A stretch of 64,000 nt of DNA from the NCBI GenBank assembly GCA_965263035.1, contig OZ253580.1, positions 1,984,001 to 2,048,000 on the forward strand, read 5' to 3'. Below, piece after piece: positions 28,913 through 57,062 of this stretch (position 1 is its first letter; each line of letters opens with the position of its first letter). Made by a program: the position numbers and the translations under genes. The stretch comes from Acidobacteriota bacterium. Its GTDB lineage: Bacteria; Acidobacteriota; UBA6911; RPQK01; JAJDTT01. The notes beneath the pieces are model-generated. The model was given only the letters and a program-made list of their open reading frames with translations, was not told where the DNA came from and searched no databases.

Positions 28913-29135
28913 GAGCGGCGGCTTTCTTGCCGCCGACCAGGGGGGCAAAGGGGGGACGGAGTCCCCACTTTACACTCTCCGGCCGCCGAACTCCGAGAGC
29001 AACACAGAAGTCCTTCACCGGCCGTCCTCCAGCGCGATCCAACCAGAAAAACCGGGTGGATGGGAGCAACAGCTTTCCAGCCGCCGGGTTCGGGTCGGTG
29101 ATGAAGACGGGGGACAAGACTGTCCCCCCTCCCAG
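28913..29135. repeat. Cluster of REP-like hairpins (stem-CAAGAA-stem-CTCCCA family)
   Basis: 28913-28970 is the reverse complement of ~35860-35916; degenerate copy near 29057-29085; GGGGGACA-AGAC-TGTCCCCC-CTCCCA at 29109-29134. Confidence 0.75.
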
Positions 29136-51466: not shown

Positions 51467-53848
51467 ATGAAGGGTCGGATGTTTATTCCTCTGCTTCCTA
51501 TTCCTCGCCTATTGGTTGTCGCCGGAATGGCTGCCTTCGGATTGCTTGCGCTCGCGTTCGCTCAGGTCATGGAGGGTCGTCTGACGGTCCGAATCTCGGA
51601 CCCCGGCGGAGGGGCGGTCGCGGCAAGTGTTCGGCTCGTCGGACGGAGCCCGGAATTCGTCGCTGCAGCGACGGCCGATGAAACGGGCCACGCGGTCATC
51701 AAGCGCTTGCCGCCGAGCCTGTATCAGTTGATCGTACGGCATGCCGGCTTCGAAGAATTCTCCATTCAAGTGGAGATCCGCTCCGCCGTCCCCCAGTCCG
51801 TGCAAGTCGTCCTGCAAGTCGGGACGCTCCATGAGGAAGTGACGGTCGAGAACTCGGCGCCTCTCCTCGACCCCTCGCAACCCTCGAACCCCATGCAGGT
51901 GGGCCGGCTGAAACTGAATCGCACACCGGGGACGACTTTGGGCCGGAGCACCATCGACGTCGTGACCACCCTGCCCGGCTGGCTGCTGGAAGCCAACGCC
52001 GTCCTCCATCCGCGCGGTTCGGAATACGACACCCAATACGTCATCGACGGGATGCCACTCTACGACAACCGTTCCATTGCGTTCGCTCCGGGATTCGAAA
52101 ACGACGAGTTCGAAGCGGTGAACGTTCTCACGGCCGGGATCCCGGCCGAATACGGGCGTCGTTTGGGTGGAGTCATCGCGCTCGACACACGCCGGGCCGA
52201 TGGGCGCGGACACCACACGGCTCTGGATCTTCAGGGAGGCGGGCACGGAACCTATTTCGGTTCCATGTCTCATCAGTACGCGGCGGATCGCACCACCGTT
52301 TCGGTCGGTCTGCAAGTCGGACGGACGGACCGTTACCTGGACCCGCCGTCCCTCGAGAACTTCACCAACAAAGCCAGTTCGGGCGGTTTCAATGCCCGTC
52401 TGGCACACGACATCTCCCCTCGCGACCAGTTGACGGTCTATCTCCGATACCACCGGTCCGGGTTTCTCGTGCCCAACGACCTGGAGCAACAGGCGGCGGG
52501 ACAACGGCAGGATCGGCAAATGGGTGAACTCGCGGGACAGGTCCACTACCAGAAGACCATTTCCGGGCGATCCGTGGGCTCTGTCCGGGGAATGGTCCGC
52601 GAGCTTTCCGGCAGGCTCTGGAGCAACCCGCTGGCGACTCCGGTCCATGTCCAACAAGACCGCGGTTTCCGCGAAGCCGCGCTCGTCGGCGACCTCACCG
52701 TCGACCATGGCTGGTACACGGTGAAGTTCGGCGGCGATGTCCGGGTCAACGACATTCGTGAGATGTTTCAACTAGCGCGTCCGGGGAAGCTGACCCATCC
52801 CGTCCTGAGCTTCCACGACCAGCGGCGTAGCACGGAGCTCGGGCTGTTCGTTCAGAATCAGGTTCGCCTCGGAAACTTCGTTACCAACCTCGGAGTCCGA
52901 TTAGACGGTTACAGACTGCTGGTAGACGATACGGCCGTCAGCCCCAGGGTCGCCCTCAGTTACTACGTCCCGAAAGCCGAAATCCAGCTGTTCGCCTCCT
53001 ACGATCGCATCTTCCAACCTCCTCCCATGGAGAATCTGTTGTTGTCGAGCGGGGCGCCGGCACTGGGAATCGACGTCGTGGAGGGCAACCTCGCGGTGCC
53101 CTCGAGCCGAGCCAACTTCTTCGAGGTCGGGCTTCGAAAATCCGTGGGCGACGCTCTGCGCCTGGACCTGAAACACTTCTGGCGTGCCTTCCAAAACTTC
53201 ATCGATGACGACGTTTTTCTGAACACGGGCATCTCGTTCCCCATCACCTTCGACACCGCCCGCATCGAGGGGACCGAAATCCGGCTCGAGCTGCCGCGCT
53301 GGAGACGAGTCTCCTCGTTCGTCAGCTACTCCAACATGCTGGGCCGCGCGACTTCGCCCGTGACGGGAGGATTGTTCATCGAGGGCGGAGAGGCGGAAGA
53401 GTTGCGAAACGTCGTCGTGCGGTTTCCCATCAGTCAGGATCAGCGCAACACGGTCGCGGCCCGGCTTCTATACGAACTCCACCGGCGAGTCTGGATCGGA
53501 TTAGGGGCGCGCTACGGCAGTGGTTTGCCGGTCGAGTTGGCCGATGATGACGACGATTCCGATGAGGACGCCGCCGTGCCGGAACACGACTCTGATGAAG
53601 ACAGCTCCATCCCGCCCGAGATTCTGGGCCGGGTGAATTTTCGGCGCGCCAGAATCCGGCCCAATTTCAGCCTGGACTTCTCCGTCGGCGCCCGGCTCTG
53701 GGAGGTCGACTCACAATCGGTCTCGGTTCAGTTCGACCTGCGCAACGCCACCGACCAGCTCAACGTGATCAACTTCAACGGGCTCTTCTCGGGCACCGCC
53801 CTGGCTCCTGGCCGGCAGGCCATCCTGCGACTGAAGATGCGATTCTGA
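51467..53848 (+). CDS. TonB-dependent receptor
   Basis: Carboxypeptidase-regulatory-like N-domain; HPRGSEYDTQYVIDG, GIPAEYG, SPRVALSY, C-terminal LKMRF; Asp-rich loop. Confidence 0.88.
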   Translation: MKGRMFIPLLPIPRLLVVAGMAAFGLLALAFAQVMEGRLTVRISDPGGGAVAASVRLVGRSPEFVAAATADETGHAVIKRLPPSLYQLIVRHAGFEEFSIQVEIRSAVPQSVQVVLQVGTLHEEVTVENSAPLLDPSQPSNPMQVGRLKLNRTPGTTLGRSTIDVVTTLPGWLLEANAVLHPRGSEYDTQYVIDGMPLYDNRSIAFAPGFENDEFEAVNVLTAGIPAEYGRRLGGVIALDTRRADGRGHHTALDLQGGGHGTYFGSMSHQYAADRTTVSVGLQVGRTDRYLDPPSLENFTNKASSGGFNARLAHDISPRDQLTVYLRYHRSGFLVPNDLEQQAAGQRQDRQMGELAGQVHYQKTISGRSVGSVRGMVRELSGRLWSNPLATPVHVQQDRGFREAALVGDLTVDHGWYTVKFGGDVRVNDIREMFQLARPGKLTHPVLSFHDQRRSTELGLFVQNQVRLGNFVTNLGVRLDGYRLLVDDTAVSPRVALSYYVPKAEIQLFASYDRIFQPPPMENLLLSSGAPALGIDVVEGNLAVPSSRANFFEVGLRKSVGDALRLDLKHFWRAFQNFIDDDVFLNTGISFPITFDTARIEGTEIRLELPRWRRVSSFVSYSNMLGRATSPVTGGLFIEGGEAEELRNVVVRFPISQDQRNTVAARLLYELHRRVWIGLGARYGSGLPVELADDDDDSDEDAAVPEHDSDEDSSIPPEILGRVNFRRARIRPNFSLDFSVGARLWEVDSQSVSVQFDLRNATDQLNVINFNGLFSGTALAPGRQAILRLKMRF

Positions 53849-54004
53849 GGGTGCCCTCTTTCGTCTCTTTGGGAACTCTCCCACCGGCCGCTGGCCGGCG
53901 CAATCCTGGCAGAAAAGGGGATATCTGGAAGCGGCGCCGTTTCAGTCTCCGGTTCCGGGTCGGTGTTGAAGAGGGGGACAAGAATGTCCCTGTACCCTTC
54001 ACGA

Positions 54005-54190
54005 GTACCCTTTAAGGGACTTCACCCACGGTGGGTGAAGAGGGCCACCTGGCCGGGAGCGACCCTAATGTCCCTGTGCCCTCGGAGCACCTGGAGGGGA
54101 TTCGTGCCCCGGCCGGTAGCCGCGATGGAGACCCGGTGGGAAGTTGGCGCCTCTGAGCACCAGTACAGGAACCGATCCGAATCGCGGCGG
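54005..54190 (+). ncRNA. Bridge RNA of the IS110 element
   Basis: 5' hairpin 54020-54040; target loop with AATGTCCC (54067-54074) and GGAGGGG (54093-54099); donor loop with GGGAAGT (54138-54144) and GTACAGG (54163-54169); closing stems present; 5' and 3' ends approximate. Confidence 0.85.
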
Positions 54191-54223
54191 CCCGACGTCC
54201 ATTTAAACACTGGGAGGGTCGGG

Positions 54224-55471
54224 ATGAAACAGAGTCAATGGTTTGTGGGAGTCGATTGGGCGTCCCAGGCGCACCAGGTCTGCGTGCTGGACACGCAAGG
54301 CACCTGTCGGGGACAGCGGAGCTTCCCGCACAGCGGTTCGGGCCTGGCCCAGATGGCCGACTGGATTCTGCAGCAGACGGGAACGAGTGCACAGGCCGTC
54401 TCGGTGGCGATTGAAGTGAACCACGGTCCGGTGGTGGATTTCCTGATGGAGCGGCGTTTTGCCGTCTATGCCATCAATCCGACGCAGCTGGATCGATTCC
54501 GCGACCGCTTCTCGCCGGCCGGAGCCAAGGATGACCGCCGCGATGCCCGGGTGCTGGCCGACGCGCTGAGAACCGACGGCCATCGCTTGCGCCGTCTCAA
54601 ACCCGTCGCTTCTGAGGTGATCCAGCTGCGCGAGTCCTCACGACTGGGTGACCAGTTGACCCGCGAGCGGACCCGGCTTCTCAACCGCCTCCGCGATCAA
54701 CTCTGGCGCTACTATCCGCAGTTCCTGGACCTCAGCGAGAATCTCGCCGAGCCCTGGGTGCTGCAAGTGTGGAAGCTGGCCCCGACGCCGGACGACGCCC
54801 AGAAGCTGCGCCCGAGCCGGGTCGCCAAGGTGTTGAAAGACCATCGGATCCGGCGAATCGACGCCCGCGAAGTCCTGCGTCGCTTGCGGGTTCCGGCCTT
54901 CCCCGTCGCCGCCGGCACCACCGAGGCGGCGGTGGCTCACGTCGCCAGCCTCGCGGAGCGCCTCGCCCTGGTGCAGAGCCAGCTCAAGGACACCGGTCGT
55001 CAGGTCGAGCGTCTGATCCGGGCTTGGGACCAGCGGTGCGAGTCGGCGCCGGGGTCCCCAGGACCGAGGCGGGATGCGGCGATCCTCGCCTCCCTGCCCG
55101 GGGTCGGCCGAATCGTCCTCGCCACTCTGCTCTCGGAAGCCTCCGATCCGTTGCGCCGCAGAGATTACGCCGCCTTGCGTTGTCTGTGCGGGGTCGCCCC
55201 CGTGACCCGGCGCTCCGGCAAACACACCCTTGTCGTCCGCCGCCAAGCCGTTCATCCTCGGCTGCGCGAGGCGACCTACCACTGGGCCCGCGTGGCCGTG
55301 CAACACGACCCGATCAGCCGGGCCAAGTACGATGCCCTGCGCGAGCGGGGTCACGGCCATGCCCGGGCCCTGCGATCCGTTGCGGACCGTCTGCTGGCGG
55401 TGGCCTGCGCCATGTTGCGAGACCAGACCCTGTTCGATCCGAATCATGCGAGACAGCGCCGTGCCGCTTGA
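54224..55471 (+). CDS. IS110-family DEDD recombinase/transposase (415 aa)
   Basis: WFVGVDW, VAIE, INP, AKDDRRDA (DEDD), SLPGVG, GVAPVTRRSG (catalytic Ser loop); GGGAGG RBS. Confidence 0.95.
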   Translation: MKQSQWFVGVDWASQAHQVCVLDTQGTCRGQRSFPHSGSGLAQMADWILQQTGTSAQAVSVAIEVNHGPVVDFLMERRFAVYAINPTQLDRFRDRFSPAGAKDDRRDARVLADALRTDGHRLRRLKPVASEVIQLRESSRLGDQLTRERTRLLNRLRDQLWRYYPQFLDLSENLAEPWVLQVWKLAPTPDDAQKLRPSRVAKVLKDHRIRRIDAREVLRRLRVPAFPVAAGTTEAAVAHVASLAERLALVQSQLKDTGRQVERLIRAWDQRCESAPGSPGPRRDAAILASLPGVGRIVLATLLSEASDPLRRRDYAALRCLCGVAPVTRRSGKHTLVVRRQAVHPRLREATYHWARVAVQHDPISRAKYDALRERGHGHARALRSVADRLLAVACAMLRDQTLFDPNHARQRRAA

Positions 55472-55617
55472 TCCCGATCCGGGCCGAGGTCCACTCCAGG
55501 CTTCGCCCGTGTGCGGCCGCTGCAGGAGCTCGAGGGTGAGGCCCACGGGGCGTCCATCCGGTACCAAATGGGCTCCGTGCCGAGAAGGGTCCAGGAGGTC
55601 TATGGCCAGCGAAAAGG

Positions 55618-55684
55618 CGACCCCCAGCGGGAGGCCCGGCGAAGGGAGCGTAGCGACCAGAGCGGGGCCTCCCGCTGGGGGTCG
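55618..55684. other. Perfect 20-bp hairpin in the IS110 right end
   Basis: CGACCCCCAGCGGGAGGCCC (55618-55637) / GGGCCTCCCGCTGGGGGTCG (55665-55684), 27-nt loop. Confidence 0.8.
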
Positions 55685-55692
55685 ATTCCCCC

Positions 55693-55698
55693 TTGACA
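55693..55698 (+). promoter_or_regulatory. -35 box (TTGACA) of the IS110 circle-junction promoter
   Basis: On circularisation: TTGACA + AAGGGTGGGAAGTCCTG (17 nt) + TACCCT (53993-53998). Confidence 0.75.
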
Positions 55699-55775
55699 AA
55701 GGGTGGGAAGTCCCCTCCCACTTCGATCCCCACGTTGGTCGACAGAACACCTCCCAAATTTAGAAAAATGGATAT

Positions 55776-57062
55776 ATGGAGCGGACAGAGGCCGCAGGAA
55801 GGGTCCGTCCACGGGAGAAGATTCTGCTCACCGGGTCCACCGGATACATCGGCGGCCGCTTGCTTCGCCGGCTCGAAGCCGACTCCTTTCCGGTTCGGTG
55901 CCTGGTCCGGCGTCCGGAAGTGCTCGGACCGCAGGTCGCGGCCACGACCGAGGTGGCCGGAGGAGACCTGCTCAAACCGGAAACGCTGCCGACGGCCATG
56001 CGGGGGATCACCACCGCCTACTATTTGGTTCATTCCATGGCCTCCATCATCATCGGCTCGGGGAGCCTGTCCTTCGAGATGATCCGGTCTCTGGTGGAGA
56101 AGCTGCCCGTCATGCTGACGCCCCGCTGGGTCCACACCATGGCGCAGCCGATCGCCGTGGAAGACGTCATCGAATACCTGCTCGCCGCGCTCGAGGCCCC
56201 TCTCGAAGGAAGCCGGGTCAATGAGATCGGGGGATCCGAACGGGCCTCCTATGCCGATATCATGGCGGAGTACGCCCGCCAGCGAGGCCTGCGTCGAAAG
56301 ATGATTTCCGTTCCCGTTCTCTTGCCCCGCCTGTCCCGCCTGTGGCTGGGTCTGATCACGCCCATCTACGCCCGGGCCGGCCGCCAACTGGTGGAGAGTC
56401 TCCGCAACGAAACCGTAGTCGACAGCGCCGCGGCCTCGGAGATCTTCAGTATCCGGCCTCGCGGTCTGGCCCCGGCGATCCGCCGCGCACTGGTGAACGA
56501 AGATCGCGAGTTCGCGGAGACGCGTTGGTCCGATGCCGTCTCCTCCCTGGGTTCCACGTCCTTGCGATCCGGGGTCCGCTATGGGACCCGCATCGTCGAT
56601 TCGCGGGTTCGTTTCGTTCCGGTCCCGGCCCCACAGGCGTTCTTGCCAATCCGGCGAATCGGCGGGGGATCGGGATGGTACGGATCGAACTGGCTCTGGA
56701 GAGTTCGGGGCGCGCTGGATCTGCTGGCCGGTGGCCCCGGCATGCGGCGTGGACGAAAGGATGCCGAACATCCCGCGATTGGAGAGACCATTGATTTCTG
56801 GAGGGTCGAGGCGTACGAAGAGAACCGGCTGCTCCGCCTCAAGGCGGAGATGCGGCTCCCCGGCCGCGCCTGGCTCCAATTCGAGGTCGAACCTCACGGC
56901 TCGGGATCGTGGGTCCGGCAGACCGCCGAGTTCGGCCCCTTGGGATTCCTGGGTCTGGCCTACTGGTACAGCCTGTACCCAGTGCACCACATCATCTTTG
57001 CACGGTTGCTCCGGGGAATCGCCTTCCTGGCAGTCCGGGAAACATGGGAGCCGAGGGGATGA
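55776..57062 (+). CDS. NAD(P)-dependent epimerase/atypical SDR with C-terminal DUF2867 (YbjT-like), probable internal deletion
   Basis: ILLTGSTGYIGGRL, YYLVHSM, SIIIGSGS.SFEM, QPIA..DV, IGG..GWY, DFWRVE, AEMRLPG.AWL, GLAYWY. Confidence 0.82.
   Translation: MERTEAAGRVRPREKILLTGSTGYIGGRLLRRLEADSFPVRCLVRRPEVLGPQVAATTEVAGGDLLKPETLPTAMRGITTAYYLVHSMASIIIGSGSLSFEMIRSLVEKLPVMLTPRWVHTMAQPIAVEDVIEYLLAALEAPLEGSRVNEIGGSERASYADIMAEYARQRGLRRKMISVPVLLPRLSRLWLGLITPIYARAGRQLVESLRNETVVDSAAASEIFSIRPRGLAPAIRRALVNEDREFAETRWSDAVSSLGSTSLRSGVRYGTRIVDSRVRFVPVPAPQAFLPIRRIGGGSGWYGSNWLWRVRGALDLLAGGPGMRRGRKDAEHPAIGETIDFWRVEAYEENRLLRLKAEMRLPGRAWLQFEVEPHGSGSWVRQTAEFGPLGFLGLAYWYSLYPVHHIIFARLLRGIAFLAVRETWEPRG

Follow-up and report, generated by a model that had tools for sequence, protein, structure and literature searches.

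Organisation of the locus

All positions below refer to the window, i.e., the whole stretch of 64,000 nucleotides of an Acidobacteriota genome analysed in this work. An IS110-group insertion sequence lies on its forward strand and is built of a 233-nt left end, a gene coding for a 415-aa DEDD/serine recombinase and a 242-nt right end. It is very probably an autonomous element whose left end encodes a bridge RNA. The features of the locus are as follows (LTG and RTG are the guides of the target-binding loop, LDG and RDG those of the donor-binding loop).

53870-53990, + strand: end of a dispersed host repeat of about 110-120 nt (sequence, genome repeat search)
53991-55713, + strand: IS110-group insertion sequence, 1723 bp, same termini in four full copies of its own genome
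53993-53998, + strand: TACCCT, weak -10-like hexamer, 17 nt downstream of TTGACA once the element is circular
54020-54040, + strand: putative 5' stem-loop of the bridge RNA
54049-54116, + strand: predicted target-binding loop, outer stem 54049-54061 with 54105-54116 (helix conservation, guide covariation)
54066-54074, + strand: LTG, TAATGTCCC, 8/9 match to the left flank plus core
54076-54090, + strand: inner hairpin of the target-binding loop
54093-54099, + strand: RTG, GGAGGGG, exact reverse complement of core plus CCTCC
54100-54101, + strand: handshake-like AT after RTG
54119-54188, + strand: predicted donor-binding loop, outer stem 54119-54126 with 54181-54188 (helix conservation)
54135-54144, + strand: LDG, GGTGGGAAGT, identical to 55702-55711
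54147-54160, + strand: inner hairpin of the donor-binding loop
54163-54169, + strand: RDG, GTACAGG, exact reverse complement of CC plus TGTAC (53991-53995)
54170-54171, + strand: handshake-like AA after RDG
54224-55471, + strand: recombinase gene, 415 aa plus stop; the open reading frame without stop is 54224-55468 (Pfam, IS621 alignment, model)
55619-55683, + strand: hairpin with a 20-bp stem in the right end (fold, self-inverted match)
55693-55698, + strand: TTGACA, -35-like box, 15 nt from the end of the element
55702-55713, + strand: left donor, i.e., the right-end terminus GGTGGGAAGT plus core CC, identical in copies A to D
55714-55720, + strand: right target CCTCC, then CA; tail of the REP-like hairpin (junctions of all copies)

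The dinucleotide CC is found at 53989-53990 and again at 55712-55713, and each of the four full copies in the genome has it at either junction. Since this core belongs to both junctions, the boundaries of the element could equally well be written as 53989-55711, and the exact cleavage positions suggested by the junctions are putative. The element begins with TGTACCC and ends with GGGAAGTCC; by eye, these ends have no inverted match and long terminal inverted repeats are absent, the short core at both junctions standing in place of a target duplication.

The insertion site

The initial annotation proposed that removal of 53991-55713 restores a hairpin. Indeed, joining 53972-53990 to 55714-55720 gives a perfect 9-bp hairpin with an AGAA loop, followed by CCCA. 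The element therefore interrupts the 3' arm of a REP-like hairpin: the last 19 nt of the host repeat (53972-53990) run from the 5' arm through the loop to the left half of the 3' arm, including the left target GAATGTC (53982-53988) and the core. The repeat has 16 matches of at least 90 nt in the same genome, this locus included, and many copies in genomes of the same genus. A genome scan found a perfect 6-bp hairpin in front of 166 of the 2097 CCCCTCC sites, compared with 4 to 62 for four permuted 7-mers. The target is thus a real family of repeated hairpins.

The recombinase

Pfam search has found PF01548 (residues 8-165, 5.5e-36) and PF02371 (residues 286-369, 8.3e-18) in the 415-aa product. 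A RuvC-like DEDD domain comes first, next an enlarged coiled-coil region and last the serine-bearing Tnp domain. D11, E64, D104, D107 and S331-G332 are the candidate catalytic residues; they are kept in 4/4 copies of this genome and are invariant in 42/42 aligned homologues. The catalytic residues of IS621 are named as D11, E60, D102, D105 and S241-G242 (PMC11208158). In the alignment to 8wt6, D11, D104, D107 and S331-G332 stand opposite IS621 D11, D102, D105 and S241-G242. We read E64 as the probable counterpart of E60, taking the glutamate nearest to it because the alignment has no strict residue correspondence there.

A phmmer search against PDB sequences returned only IS621 (8.8e-8) and ISCro4 (1.3e-7). 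The AlphaFold model (mean pLDDT 86.4) leads to the same proteins: chains of IS621 and ISCro4 take the first ten places among the Foldseek hits (E 2.7e-12 to 1.1e-11, TM 0.55-0.59 on target), with TasR and Nop5 next in the ranking. Domains, catalytic residues and fold thus agree with the initial call of a 415-aa IS110 recombinase. At least 7534 related proteins are present in the database at E <= 1e-30. Their hosts are titled Acidobacteriota, Gemmatimonadota-like, Rhodothermales and Alphaproteobacteria, the nearest named relatives being titled Acidobacteriota; no ISfinder name was found for close relatives in the sources consulted.

Predicted structure of the left-end RNA

The left end presumably gives rise to a bridge RNA of about 190 nt (about 54005-54193), transcription being suggested by sequence features. 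Left to an unconstrained single-sequence fold, the left end gave z = -1.49 with LTG paired to RTG; as such a fold is uninformative alone, the structure was taken from alignments. The four helices of the two loops are 94.7% paired across homologous left ends, against 34-48% after sliding the partners by 1 to 3 columns, and 17 of their 28 pairs show compensatory changes on both sides. In the target-binding loop helix 1 is 92.4% paired (7/12 pairs compensatory) and helix 2 96.1%; in the donor-binding loop helix 3 is 96.4% paired (5/8 pairs compensatory) and helix 4 96.9%. A wider alignment of 45 sequences gives 80.7% pairing against 39-45%. Here the 5' stem-loop, numbered helix 2 in this alignment, has 78.2% of its cells paired and changes on both sides in 7/8 pairs.

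The stems claimed in the initial annotation are therefore borne out by covariation, both the outer ones (54051-54057 with 54108-54114 and 54119-54126 with 54181-54188) and the hairpin ahead of the guides at 54020-54040. A covariance model of the two-loop RNA matches left ends only. Rfam scanning of 53700-56000 gave 7 matches at E <= 1, none of them in the left end and none at the gathering score. The weak, chance-level Rfam matches lie in the reading frame and in the right-end hairpin.

Guides and flanking sequences

All four guides were found where the initial annotation had placed them, with the matches listed above. LDG and RDG match the element termini of the window at 10/10 and 7/7, and the same holds for copies A to D. 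LDG is followed by TG and not by the core CC, as had been remarked; in the alignment of the whole clade the dinucleotide after LDG is TT, CT, TC or CA. The AT after RTG can pair with donor positions 6-7 (GT), and AC or AT occupies this place in 77/81 loci. The AA after RDG pairs poorly with the target of the window copy, and clade-wide the bases after RDG give a weak signal (45/74 cells paired, against a mean of 39.0 and a maximum of 44 in shuffles).

The genome contains four intact copies (A to D) and one fragment (E), which carry three different LTGs. Copies A and B have TAATGTCCC and flanks (G/A)AATGTCCC, copies C and D have TAAAGCCGC and the flank GAAAGCCGCC, and fragment E has TAAAGTCGC and the flank GAAAGTCGCC. 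Every copy has an LTG that fits its own left flank. RTG is GGAGGGG in all copies, and the right flank begins with CCTCC in the four full copies and in fragment E. Free sites fitting the guide of copies A and B are two only in the genome, each with the same single mismatch as the occupied site.

The comparison was extended to 84 loci, 4 from this genome and 80 from relatives, 81 of which yielded the RNA by anchor motifs; loci L020, L026 and L044 were missed by this extraction and are absent from all counts. For RTG and the right flank, the 48 unique pairs agree on average at 4.52/5 positions; shuffles average 2.51 and peak at 3.19, and 0/10000 of them reach the observed value. Eleven of 13 distinct RTGs match at 4/5 or better, and the GGAGGGG class matches at 5/5 in all 9 distinct flanks. 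For LTG, the inner hairpin length varies and a fixed register mis-aligned several loops, so it was replaced by the best of five registers, with the same rule applied to shuffles. This gave a mean of 7.27/9 over 55 unique pairs (31 loops), against a shuffled mean of 5.24 and maximum of 5.87, reached by 0/5000 shuffles; the match is poorer (6-7/9) for targets rich in C runs. Relatives share ancestry, so both shuffle tests overstate independence. Guides covary with flanks both among the copies of this genome and over the 81 loci, and the stems covary as well, so the guide matches go beyond chance.

The end of the element was located for 65/81 loci using probes derived from LDG and RDG, which makes donor matching outside this genome partly a matter of construction. 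The right-end terminus in relatives reads GGTGGG(G/A)AGTCC or GGTAGGGAGTCC. Every relative with both ends found has the core CC, which is again partly by construction because the search accepted only right-end termini with CC.

The right end and a candidate junction promoter

The right end is strongly structured (z = -4.5, none of 200 shuffles being as stable). Its hairpin with the 20-bp stem is also present in copies C and D and in locus L013, and four other relatives (L012, L014, L015 and L017) have a different hairpin upstream of the -35-like box. The hairpin of the window copy may serve as a stop or insulator of transcription ahead of a junction promoter.

A hexamer starting with TTG stands at the place of the -35-like box in 26/32 distinct elements, with TTTACA in 3 and a one-base shift in the remaining 3. 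At the left end, TAYCNT-type hexamers are found in 32 distinct pairs of right and left ends, with T at position 6 in 28. TACCCT of the window copy has a 3/6 match, below the 4/6 criterion of our scan, and scanning of the linear locus for sigma-70-type sites and terminators found none. The placement of the two hexamers suggests that a promoter may be rebuilt across the junction of right and left ends in a circle.

Proposed mechanism

By analogy with IS621, the element would leave the chromosome as a circle, its right end joined to its left end at GGGAAGT-CC-TGTAC. This junction would put TTGACA 17 nt upstream of TACCCT and thus create a promoter for both the RNA and the recombinase gene. The RNA would fold into the 5' stem-loop and two internal loops, the second of which could hold the circle junction with LDG and RDG. 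A tetramer of the recombinase would then exchange strands at the CC core, and the element would enter the 3' arm of a REP-like hairpin with no duplication beyond the shared core.

Mobility and alternative explanations

Judging by its sequence, the element is presumably still active. An unlikely alternative is that it has the anatomy of a bridge-RNA element while the window copy is no longer mobile, its guides and flanks recording past insertions only. The truncated copy E shows that decay does occur in this genome, the -10-like hexamer is weak, and the guide of copies A and B has two free near-perfect sites only. Parts of the stretch are present in public runs (20 rows from 8 studies in Logan contigs), and in the contigs of the four runs compared out of the 24 listed (X1, X5, X16 and X18) neither a joint of the ends expected for a circle nor the joint of an empty site was found; however, rare variants are lost in contigs, and the lack of a circle junction is therefore uninformative. 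Two contigs come from RNA libraries, X16 covering 53973-54183 with the flank of copy B and X18 covering 54018-54187 of a variant with a different LTG; since contigs from DNA end at the same points and RNA libraries may contain DNA, this cover tells nothing about transcription, RNA ends or level, and the stretches left uncovered by the RNA runs are equally uninformative. Against loss of mobility, all four full copies keep the 415-aa open frame with all catalytic residues, and copies A and B differ at just 10/1723 positions while lying at different loci, which points to recent transposition. The element is also unevenly distributed within the genus: the covariance model found the RNA in 3/8 other same-genus genomes (and in 0/22 genomes outside the genus), and one of the same-genus genomes has an empty orthologous site, its flanks being 5 nt apart with no element between. 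For the copy in genome G004 the left end and its flank could be read, the right end being absent from the 2-kb piece examined.

Two other explanations would give the left end a different role. The motifs could act as DNA, for instance as sub-terminal repeats bound by protein or as remnants of junctions that were nested or duplicated, with no guide RNA involved. In copies A and B, LTG and the bases following it (TAATGTCCCTGTGCCCT) do resemble the left junction (GAATGTCCCTGTACCCT) over 17 nt, and part of the first 9 nt of the left end recurs 13 nt deeper inside the element. A duplicated junction was rejected as the source of this 17-nt likeness, which is absent in C, D and E; beyond LTG it is absent in relatives as well, while the match of LTG to its flank persists. 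Moreover, rather than repeating their DNA, RTG and RDG read as its reverse complement, compensatory changes in four helices fit a structured transcript and would be unexpected for a purely double-stranded DNA site, and the homologous IS621 and ISCro4 proteins have been solved bound to bridge RNA (PMC11208158), all of which makes a DNA role very improbable. The element could also belong to an IS1111-type branch with a seekRNA-like guide RNA in its long, strongly structured right end (242 nt, z = -4.5), as long right ends are described for the IS1111 group (Durrant et al., 2024, PMC11208160). We regard this as extremely improbable. Apart from the terminal 14 nt, no donor 7-mer occurs in the right end on either strand and a single target 7-mer occurs there, on the top strand only; the paired guide layout is missing. 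The sequence of the right-end hairpin differs among close relatives, and it is the left end that carries all four guides, covarying with flanks, and gives the matches of the two-loop covariance model.

Comparison with known bridge recombinases

The best reference for the present element is IS621 of Escherichia coli, an IS110-group bridge recombinase with a 177-nt bridge RNA (PMC11208160; PMC11208158). Both combine a RuvC-like DEDD domain with a coiled coil and a Tnp domain whose catalytic serine precedes a glycine. They share the left-end RNA with its 5' stem-loop, target-binding and donor-binding loops, 14-nt recognition around a 2-nt core, a target in a REP element, a right-end -35 box completing a candidate promoter across the circle junction, and handshake-like bases after RTG. 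It is well supported that the present element is a new example of a bridge-RNA element and not a new kind of system, the mechanism being already known from IS621.

There are several differences. The two proteins are only about 20% identical, and the one described here has 415 aa against 326 residues in IS621 (PMC11208158); in the model, the helical region separating the RuvC domain from the Tnp domain is enlarged. RTG is an uninterrupted run of 7 bases (5 plus core), compared with a natural RTG-RT pairing of 4 bp in IS621, which was extended to 7 by Durrant et al. (PMC11208160). All four IS621 guides are stated to include the core, in contrast to the LDG of this element. The left end is described as the longer one for the IS110 group in general (Durrant et al., PMC11208160), while here the left and right ends have 233 and 242 nt. 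Overall, the element is distinguished by its CC core, enlarged coiled-coil region and long right end.

ISCro4 (IS622) of Citrobacter rodentium (PDB 9t56), the second-best match by both sequence and fold, shares the fold and the logic of a two-loop RNA. This close relative of IS621 has a CT core and was shown to be active in human cells (Perry et al., 10.1101/2025.05.14.653916); the present element is distant from it and is known here from sequence and model. ISPpu10 of Pseudomonas putida also inserts into a REP stem-loop, with the 3' arm as left target, and has a left-end bridge RNA; its junction promoter has a candidate counterpart here (10.64898/2026.03.19.712850). It differs in its host and CT core, and the contribution of the stem-loop was tested by experiment there, while the hairpin is only observed in our case. 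With CC in 4/4 copies of this genome and CT in IS621, ISCro4 and ISPpu10, core identity is a parameter of these elements and not a feature defining the family. The IS1111 group has a DEDD recombinase of the same family and RNA-guided targeting, but its RNA is in the right end and it has long sub-terminal inverted repeats (Durrant et al., 2024, PMC11208160), in contrast to the left-end RNA and the lack of a visible terminal inverted repeat here.

Every coordinate of the initial annotation that was checked proved correct, four full copies share the termini it gave, and its bridge-RNA reading is supported by independent tests of each part. Its novelty was overstated, since predictions of bridge RNAs for thousands of IS110 elements date from 2024, with a far larger catalogue in a 2026 preprint, and targeting of REP stem-loops is on record for both IS621 and ISPpu10 (10.64898/2026.03.19.712850). 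The words "intact" and "potentially reprogrammable" likewise say more than sequence evidence warrants. Our literature search found no paper with both "CC core" and "bridge RNA"; the supplementary core tables of Durrant et al. (2024) and of the 2026 catalogue preprint were outside this search and may list the clade.

Implications

As the mechanism is known, the element leaves the understanding of bridge recombination unchanged and its value lies in the details. We give about even chances to the following broader reading: the element represents a widespread, uncharacterised clade of ~415-aa bridge recombinases (at least 7534 proteins) which natively need a CC core, use an RTG of 7 contiguous nt and have an LDG leaving the core unread, and whose target loop was rewritten at least six times within one genus, following the variants of the host REP hairpin. 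Three target guide types (ATGTC, AAGCC and AAGTC) occur in this one genome, each in the matching hairpin variant, with donor loop and RTG constant, and three further guide variants are found in the same genus; these natural variants lend direct comparative support to the idea that a change of LTG alone retargets such elements. Hairpins followed by CCTCC, some of them ending the ~120-nt repeat, act as insertion sites, echoing the stem-loop "gate" reported for ISPpu10.

If this reading is correct, the clade would provide a bridge system that is orthogonal, adapted to GC and subject to another core rule. Engineered cores have kept T at the second position: CT, AT, GT and TT (Durrant et al., PMC11208160) or CT and GT (Perry et al., 10.1101/2025.05.14.653916), so an enzyme natively using a CC core could widen the range of addressable sites. 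The clade would also preserve a natural record of RNA reprogramming in which the donor loop stays fixed.

Anatomy of the insertion

The initial annotation described an IS110-group insertion sequence at 53991-55713 (copy A) with four guides in its left end: the left and right target guides (LTG and RTG) and the left and right donor guides (LDG and RDG). Direct inspection of 53850-55850 agrees with every coordinate proposed for the guides and the element. Removal of the element joins 53972-53990 to 55714-55720 and does restore the claimed hairpin, a perfect 9-bp stem with an AGAA loop, followed by CCCA. CC is present at both junctions (53989-53990 and 55712-55713), so the inserted segment is 1723 bp, whichever CC is counted. 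The element is intergenic: upstream lies a gene for a TonB-dependent receptor, downstream one for a DUF2867/NAD-binding protein.

Features of copy A (window positions)
53991-55713 (+), insertion sequence
53993-53998, TACCCT, -10-like hexamer of the left end
54066-54074, LTG, matching the left flank plus core at 8/9
54093-54099, RTG, exact reverse complement of CC + CCTCC
54135-54144, LDG, identical to 55702-55711
54163-54169, RDG, exact reverse complement of CC + 53991-53995
54224-55468, recombinase ORF, 415 aa
55619-55683, right-end hairpin with a 20-bp perfect stem, just upstream of the -35-like box
55693-55698, TTGACA, -35-like box, 15 nt from the last base of the right end

Guides follow the flanks of the element

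A DNA search of the element's own genome has found four full copies (A-D) and one fragment (E). Copies A-D have common termini, and each keeps the catalytic residues in a 415-aa frame. Of 1723 positions, 10 differ between A and B.

Copies in the own genome, with left target guides and left flanks
A (window copy, reference for identities) and B (99% identical to A): LTG TAATGTCCC; left flank (G/A)AATGTCCC
C and D (85% and 83% identical to A): LTG TAAAGCCGC; left flank GAAAGCCGCC
E (154-nt left-end match, 162 nt after inspection): LTG TAAAGTCGC; left flank GAAAGTCGCC

CCTCC is the right flank of all copies and RTG is constant, while LTG varies among the copies and tracks its own flank, which we consider the decisive point. 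Covariation of guides with flanking targets in other copies had been proposed as a check on the bridge RNA reading, and LTG does follow the flank in A/B, C/D and E.

Fragment E is a 162-bp mini-copy outside the window (G000:C1:2558570-2558731). It extends from the left end as far as the LDG region, where a direct joint follows, ...CAGTGTCC/CCTCC. The 5' stem-loop and the complete target loop are retained; RDG, the gene and the 3' half of the donor loop are missing. GTCC is common to the deletion end and the true right end; the fragment could have originated by microhomology or in an aberrant recombination event. The own genome also carries, outside the window, 13 more PF01548 genes (IS110-type DEDD) that are shorter and of another type (ORFs of about 280-322 aa).

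For relatives, one genome per species was scanned and the best 80 of 297 related loci were kept. Among these, record titles at 81-82% protein identity name Acidobacteriota, and those at 58-65% name Vicinamibacterales, Bryobacterales, Rhodothermales, Gemmatimonadaceae, Longimicrobiales, Paracoccaceae, Azospirillum and others. Anchor motifs located a two-loop segment of about 145 nt upstream of the gene in 81 of 84 loci (four own plus the best 80); the three loci missed (L020, L026 and L044) were omitted from the counts. The left end was placed via the reverse complement of each locus's own RDG and the right end via its own LDG + CC, yielding left flanks for 80 loci and right flanks for 65. Donor matching in relatives is therefore true by construction, while target guides played no part in finding the flanks.

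RTG agrees with the five right-flank bases next to the element at a mean of 4.52/5 over 48 unique pairs (37 score 5, seven score 4 and four score 2 or less). Shuffled pairings average 2.51 and peak at 3.19, and none of 10000 reaches the observed value. Eleven of the 13 distinct RTGs have some flank matching at least 4/5. For LTG, five registers were tried for every pair, real or shuffled, and the best was scored against the final nine bases of the left flank. The mean is 7.27/9 (55 unique pairs, 31 distinct loops), compared with 5.24 (maximum 5.87) for the shuffles, of which 0/5000 reach the observed mean. Both shuffle tests overstate independence because the relatives share ancestry. The LTG match is weaker for C-run targets (6-7/9), and the right-side match fails in L062, L018 and a few other loci.

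Other LTGs, too, track their flanks in close relatives at 81-82% protein identity (L012-L017): LTG ACAGTCCCC matches the flank at 9/9 in L012, L014 and L015, and LTG AAAGTCCCC at 9/9 in L016 and 8/9 in L017. The LTG of a copy in the same-genus genome G004 does so as well (AAAACCGC, with flank GAAACCGCC). Two other loci, L031 and L075, have TGTAC, the right-donor sequence, after the right-end CC instead of the sequence predicted by RTG, and no second copy follows. These right flanks look like the "half-match" insertions of IS621 as described in the available text of a preprint (10.64898/2026.08.31.748434).

Structure of the predicted bridge RNA

In a 32-sequence alignment of the two-loop segment, the four defined helices are 94.7% paired, compared with 34-48% when partners are slid by 1-3 columns, and 17 of the 28 pairs have changes on both sides. 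Pairing is 92.4% in the outer stem and 96.1% in the inner hairpin of the target loop, and 96.4% and 96.9%, respectively, in the donor loop. Both outer stems are recovered by RNAalifold unaided. A wider alignment of 45 sequences including the 5' stem-loop is 80.7% paired (39-45% when slid), the 5' stem-loop itself being 78.2% paired with 7/8 pairs compensatory.

RTG is followed by AC in 64 and by AT in 13 of 81 loci; either can pair with donor positions 6-7 (GT), as the handshake model requires. For the two bases after RDG, 45 of 74 cells can be paired with target positions 6-7 (shuffled mean 39.0, maximum 44); in the window copy, AA after RDG fits the target poorly.

A covariance model, a check suggested in the initial annotation, was built from the alignment; in the own genome it picks out the five left ends and nothing else. 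It also has matches in three of eight other same-genus genomes and none in 22 genomes outside the genus but within the family and order. This patchy spread of the RNA fits a mobile element. Orthologues of the window copy's left flank are present in all eight same-genus genomes searched. In one of them, G003, matches to the left and right flanks of the window copy lie 5 nt apart with nothing between, and this locus is an empty site, though its hairpin has diverged.

The recombinase

The 415-aa protein matches DEDD_Tnp_IS110 (5.5e-36) and Transposase_20 (8.3e-18) in Pfam, and among all PDB sequences only the recombinases IS621 (8.8e-8) and ISCro4 (1.3e-7). The family is large: at least 7534 of 8000 candidate proteins scored have E <= 1e-30. 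D11, D104, D107 and S331-G332 align with D11, D102, D105 and S241-G242 of IS621, named as its composite active site by Hiraizumi et al. (PMC11208158, in the text available). The alignment lacks strict residue correspondence at IS621 E60, so the nearest glutamate, E64, stands in as its putative counterpart. These candidate catalytic residues are present in 4/4 genomic copies and invariant across 42 aligned homologues.

An AlphaFold model was obtained from the homologue alignment (pLDDT 86.4). Its ten best Foldseek matches are IS621 and ISCro4 chains (E about 3e-12, identity 19-20%, TM 0.55-0.59 on target), and TIGR-TasR and Nop5-family proteins rank after them, in agreement with a link among these families in published accounts. 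Compared with IS621, the protein has about 90 additional residues. These are modelled as small helices (about 165-230) flanked by two long ones (130-163 and 232-274), so that the predicted coiled-coil region is enlarged.

The host hairpin target

The genome contains 2097 CCCCTCC sites, 166 of them directly preceded by a hairpin with a perfect 6-bp stem and a loop of 3-8 nt. Four permuted 7-mers give 4, 6, 58 and 62 such hairpins, the two larger counts probably including shifted readings of the same hairpin family. The target hairpin belongs to a repeat family: the last 110-120 nt or so of the left flank (53870-53990) are a dispersed repeat ending in the hairpin, with 16 matches of at least 90 nt in the genome, the locus itself counted. 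The repeat has a second, upstream palindrome and is common in the genus. Two further hairpin + CCTCC sites are found in the window, at 29126 and 35774.

Most repeat copies have six C, whereas the reconstructed window site has five, so the A/B guide fits few sites: it has no exact free site in the genome and two at one mismatch, the same mismatch as in the occupied site. The C/D guide has 2 free exact sites and 37 at one mismatch; the guide of copy E fits the commonest hairpin variant, with 33 free exact sites. CCTCC, the REP tail, resembles the anti-Shine-Dalgarno sequence, and hence the right target is complementary both to RTG GGAGGGG (54093-54099) and to the ribosome-binding region of the gene, TGGGAGGG (54211-54218).

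A candidate promoter across the circle junction

In the circular form, TTGACA of the right end would lie 17 nt upstream of TACCCT of the left end and could form a promoter across the junction. Among 32 distinct pairs of right and left ends, a TTG-starting hexamer occupies the exact -35 place in 26, TTTACA occurs in three and the hexamer is one base off in three; the left-end hexamer has the form TA...T in 28. A scan of the linear locus found no sigma-70-type site. From this layout we infer a candidate junction promoter with a weak -10, following the logic reported for IS621 and ISPpu10 in the sources available.

The right-end hairpin upstream of the -35-like box has a different sequence in close relatives. 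The first bases of the left end (53991-54012) are partly repeated 13 nt further in (TGTACCCTT ... GTACCCTT), creating a second TACCCT; this duplication is absent from the relatives L016 and L017. Positions 54869-54877 in the recombinase gene (GAAGTCCTG) match, base for base, a 9-nt stretch of the circle junction as predicted: the final five bases of the left donor, then the core, then two bases from the start of the left end. About 0.14 such matches are expected by chance on a rough estimate, and this one may mean nothing.

Comparison with known bridge RNA systems

The anatomy of the element is of the IS621 type, as described by Durrant et al. (PMC11208160) and Hiraizumi et al. (PMC11208158), and target stem-loops in REP elements are known for ISPpu10 (10.64898/2026.03.19.712850), where the stem-loop is reported to contribute to specificity. 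The element differs in having a CC core instead of CT, an RTG of seven contiguous bases, an LDG that is not followed by the core, and a right end that equals the left one in length and carries a 20-bp hairpin. Its protein is about 20% identical to the solved enzymes (IS621 and ISCro4) and is modelled with a larger coiled-coil region.

Published core changes retained T at the second position, according to the accessible parts of Durrant et al. (PMC11208160) and Perry et al. (10.1101/2025.05.14.653916). A literature search, which covered texts outside supplementary tables, found no paper mentioning both a CC core and a bridge RNA, and the clade may already be listed in such tables. A 2026 preprint (10.64898/2026.10.21.760802) grouped 181,180 intergenic sequences adjacent to IS110 into clusters and inferred the cores of each.

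Overall, covariation of guides with flanks, compensatory changes in the RNA helices and the IS110 recombinase support the bridge RNA interpretation. The element is a genuine bridge RNA insertion sequence, intact as judged by its sequence and probably active recently, with a mechanism of a known kind and some distinct parameters.
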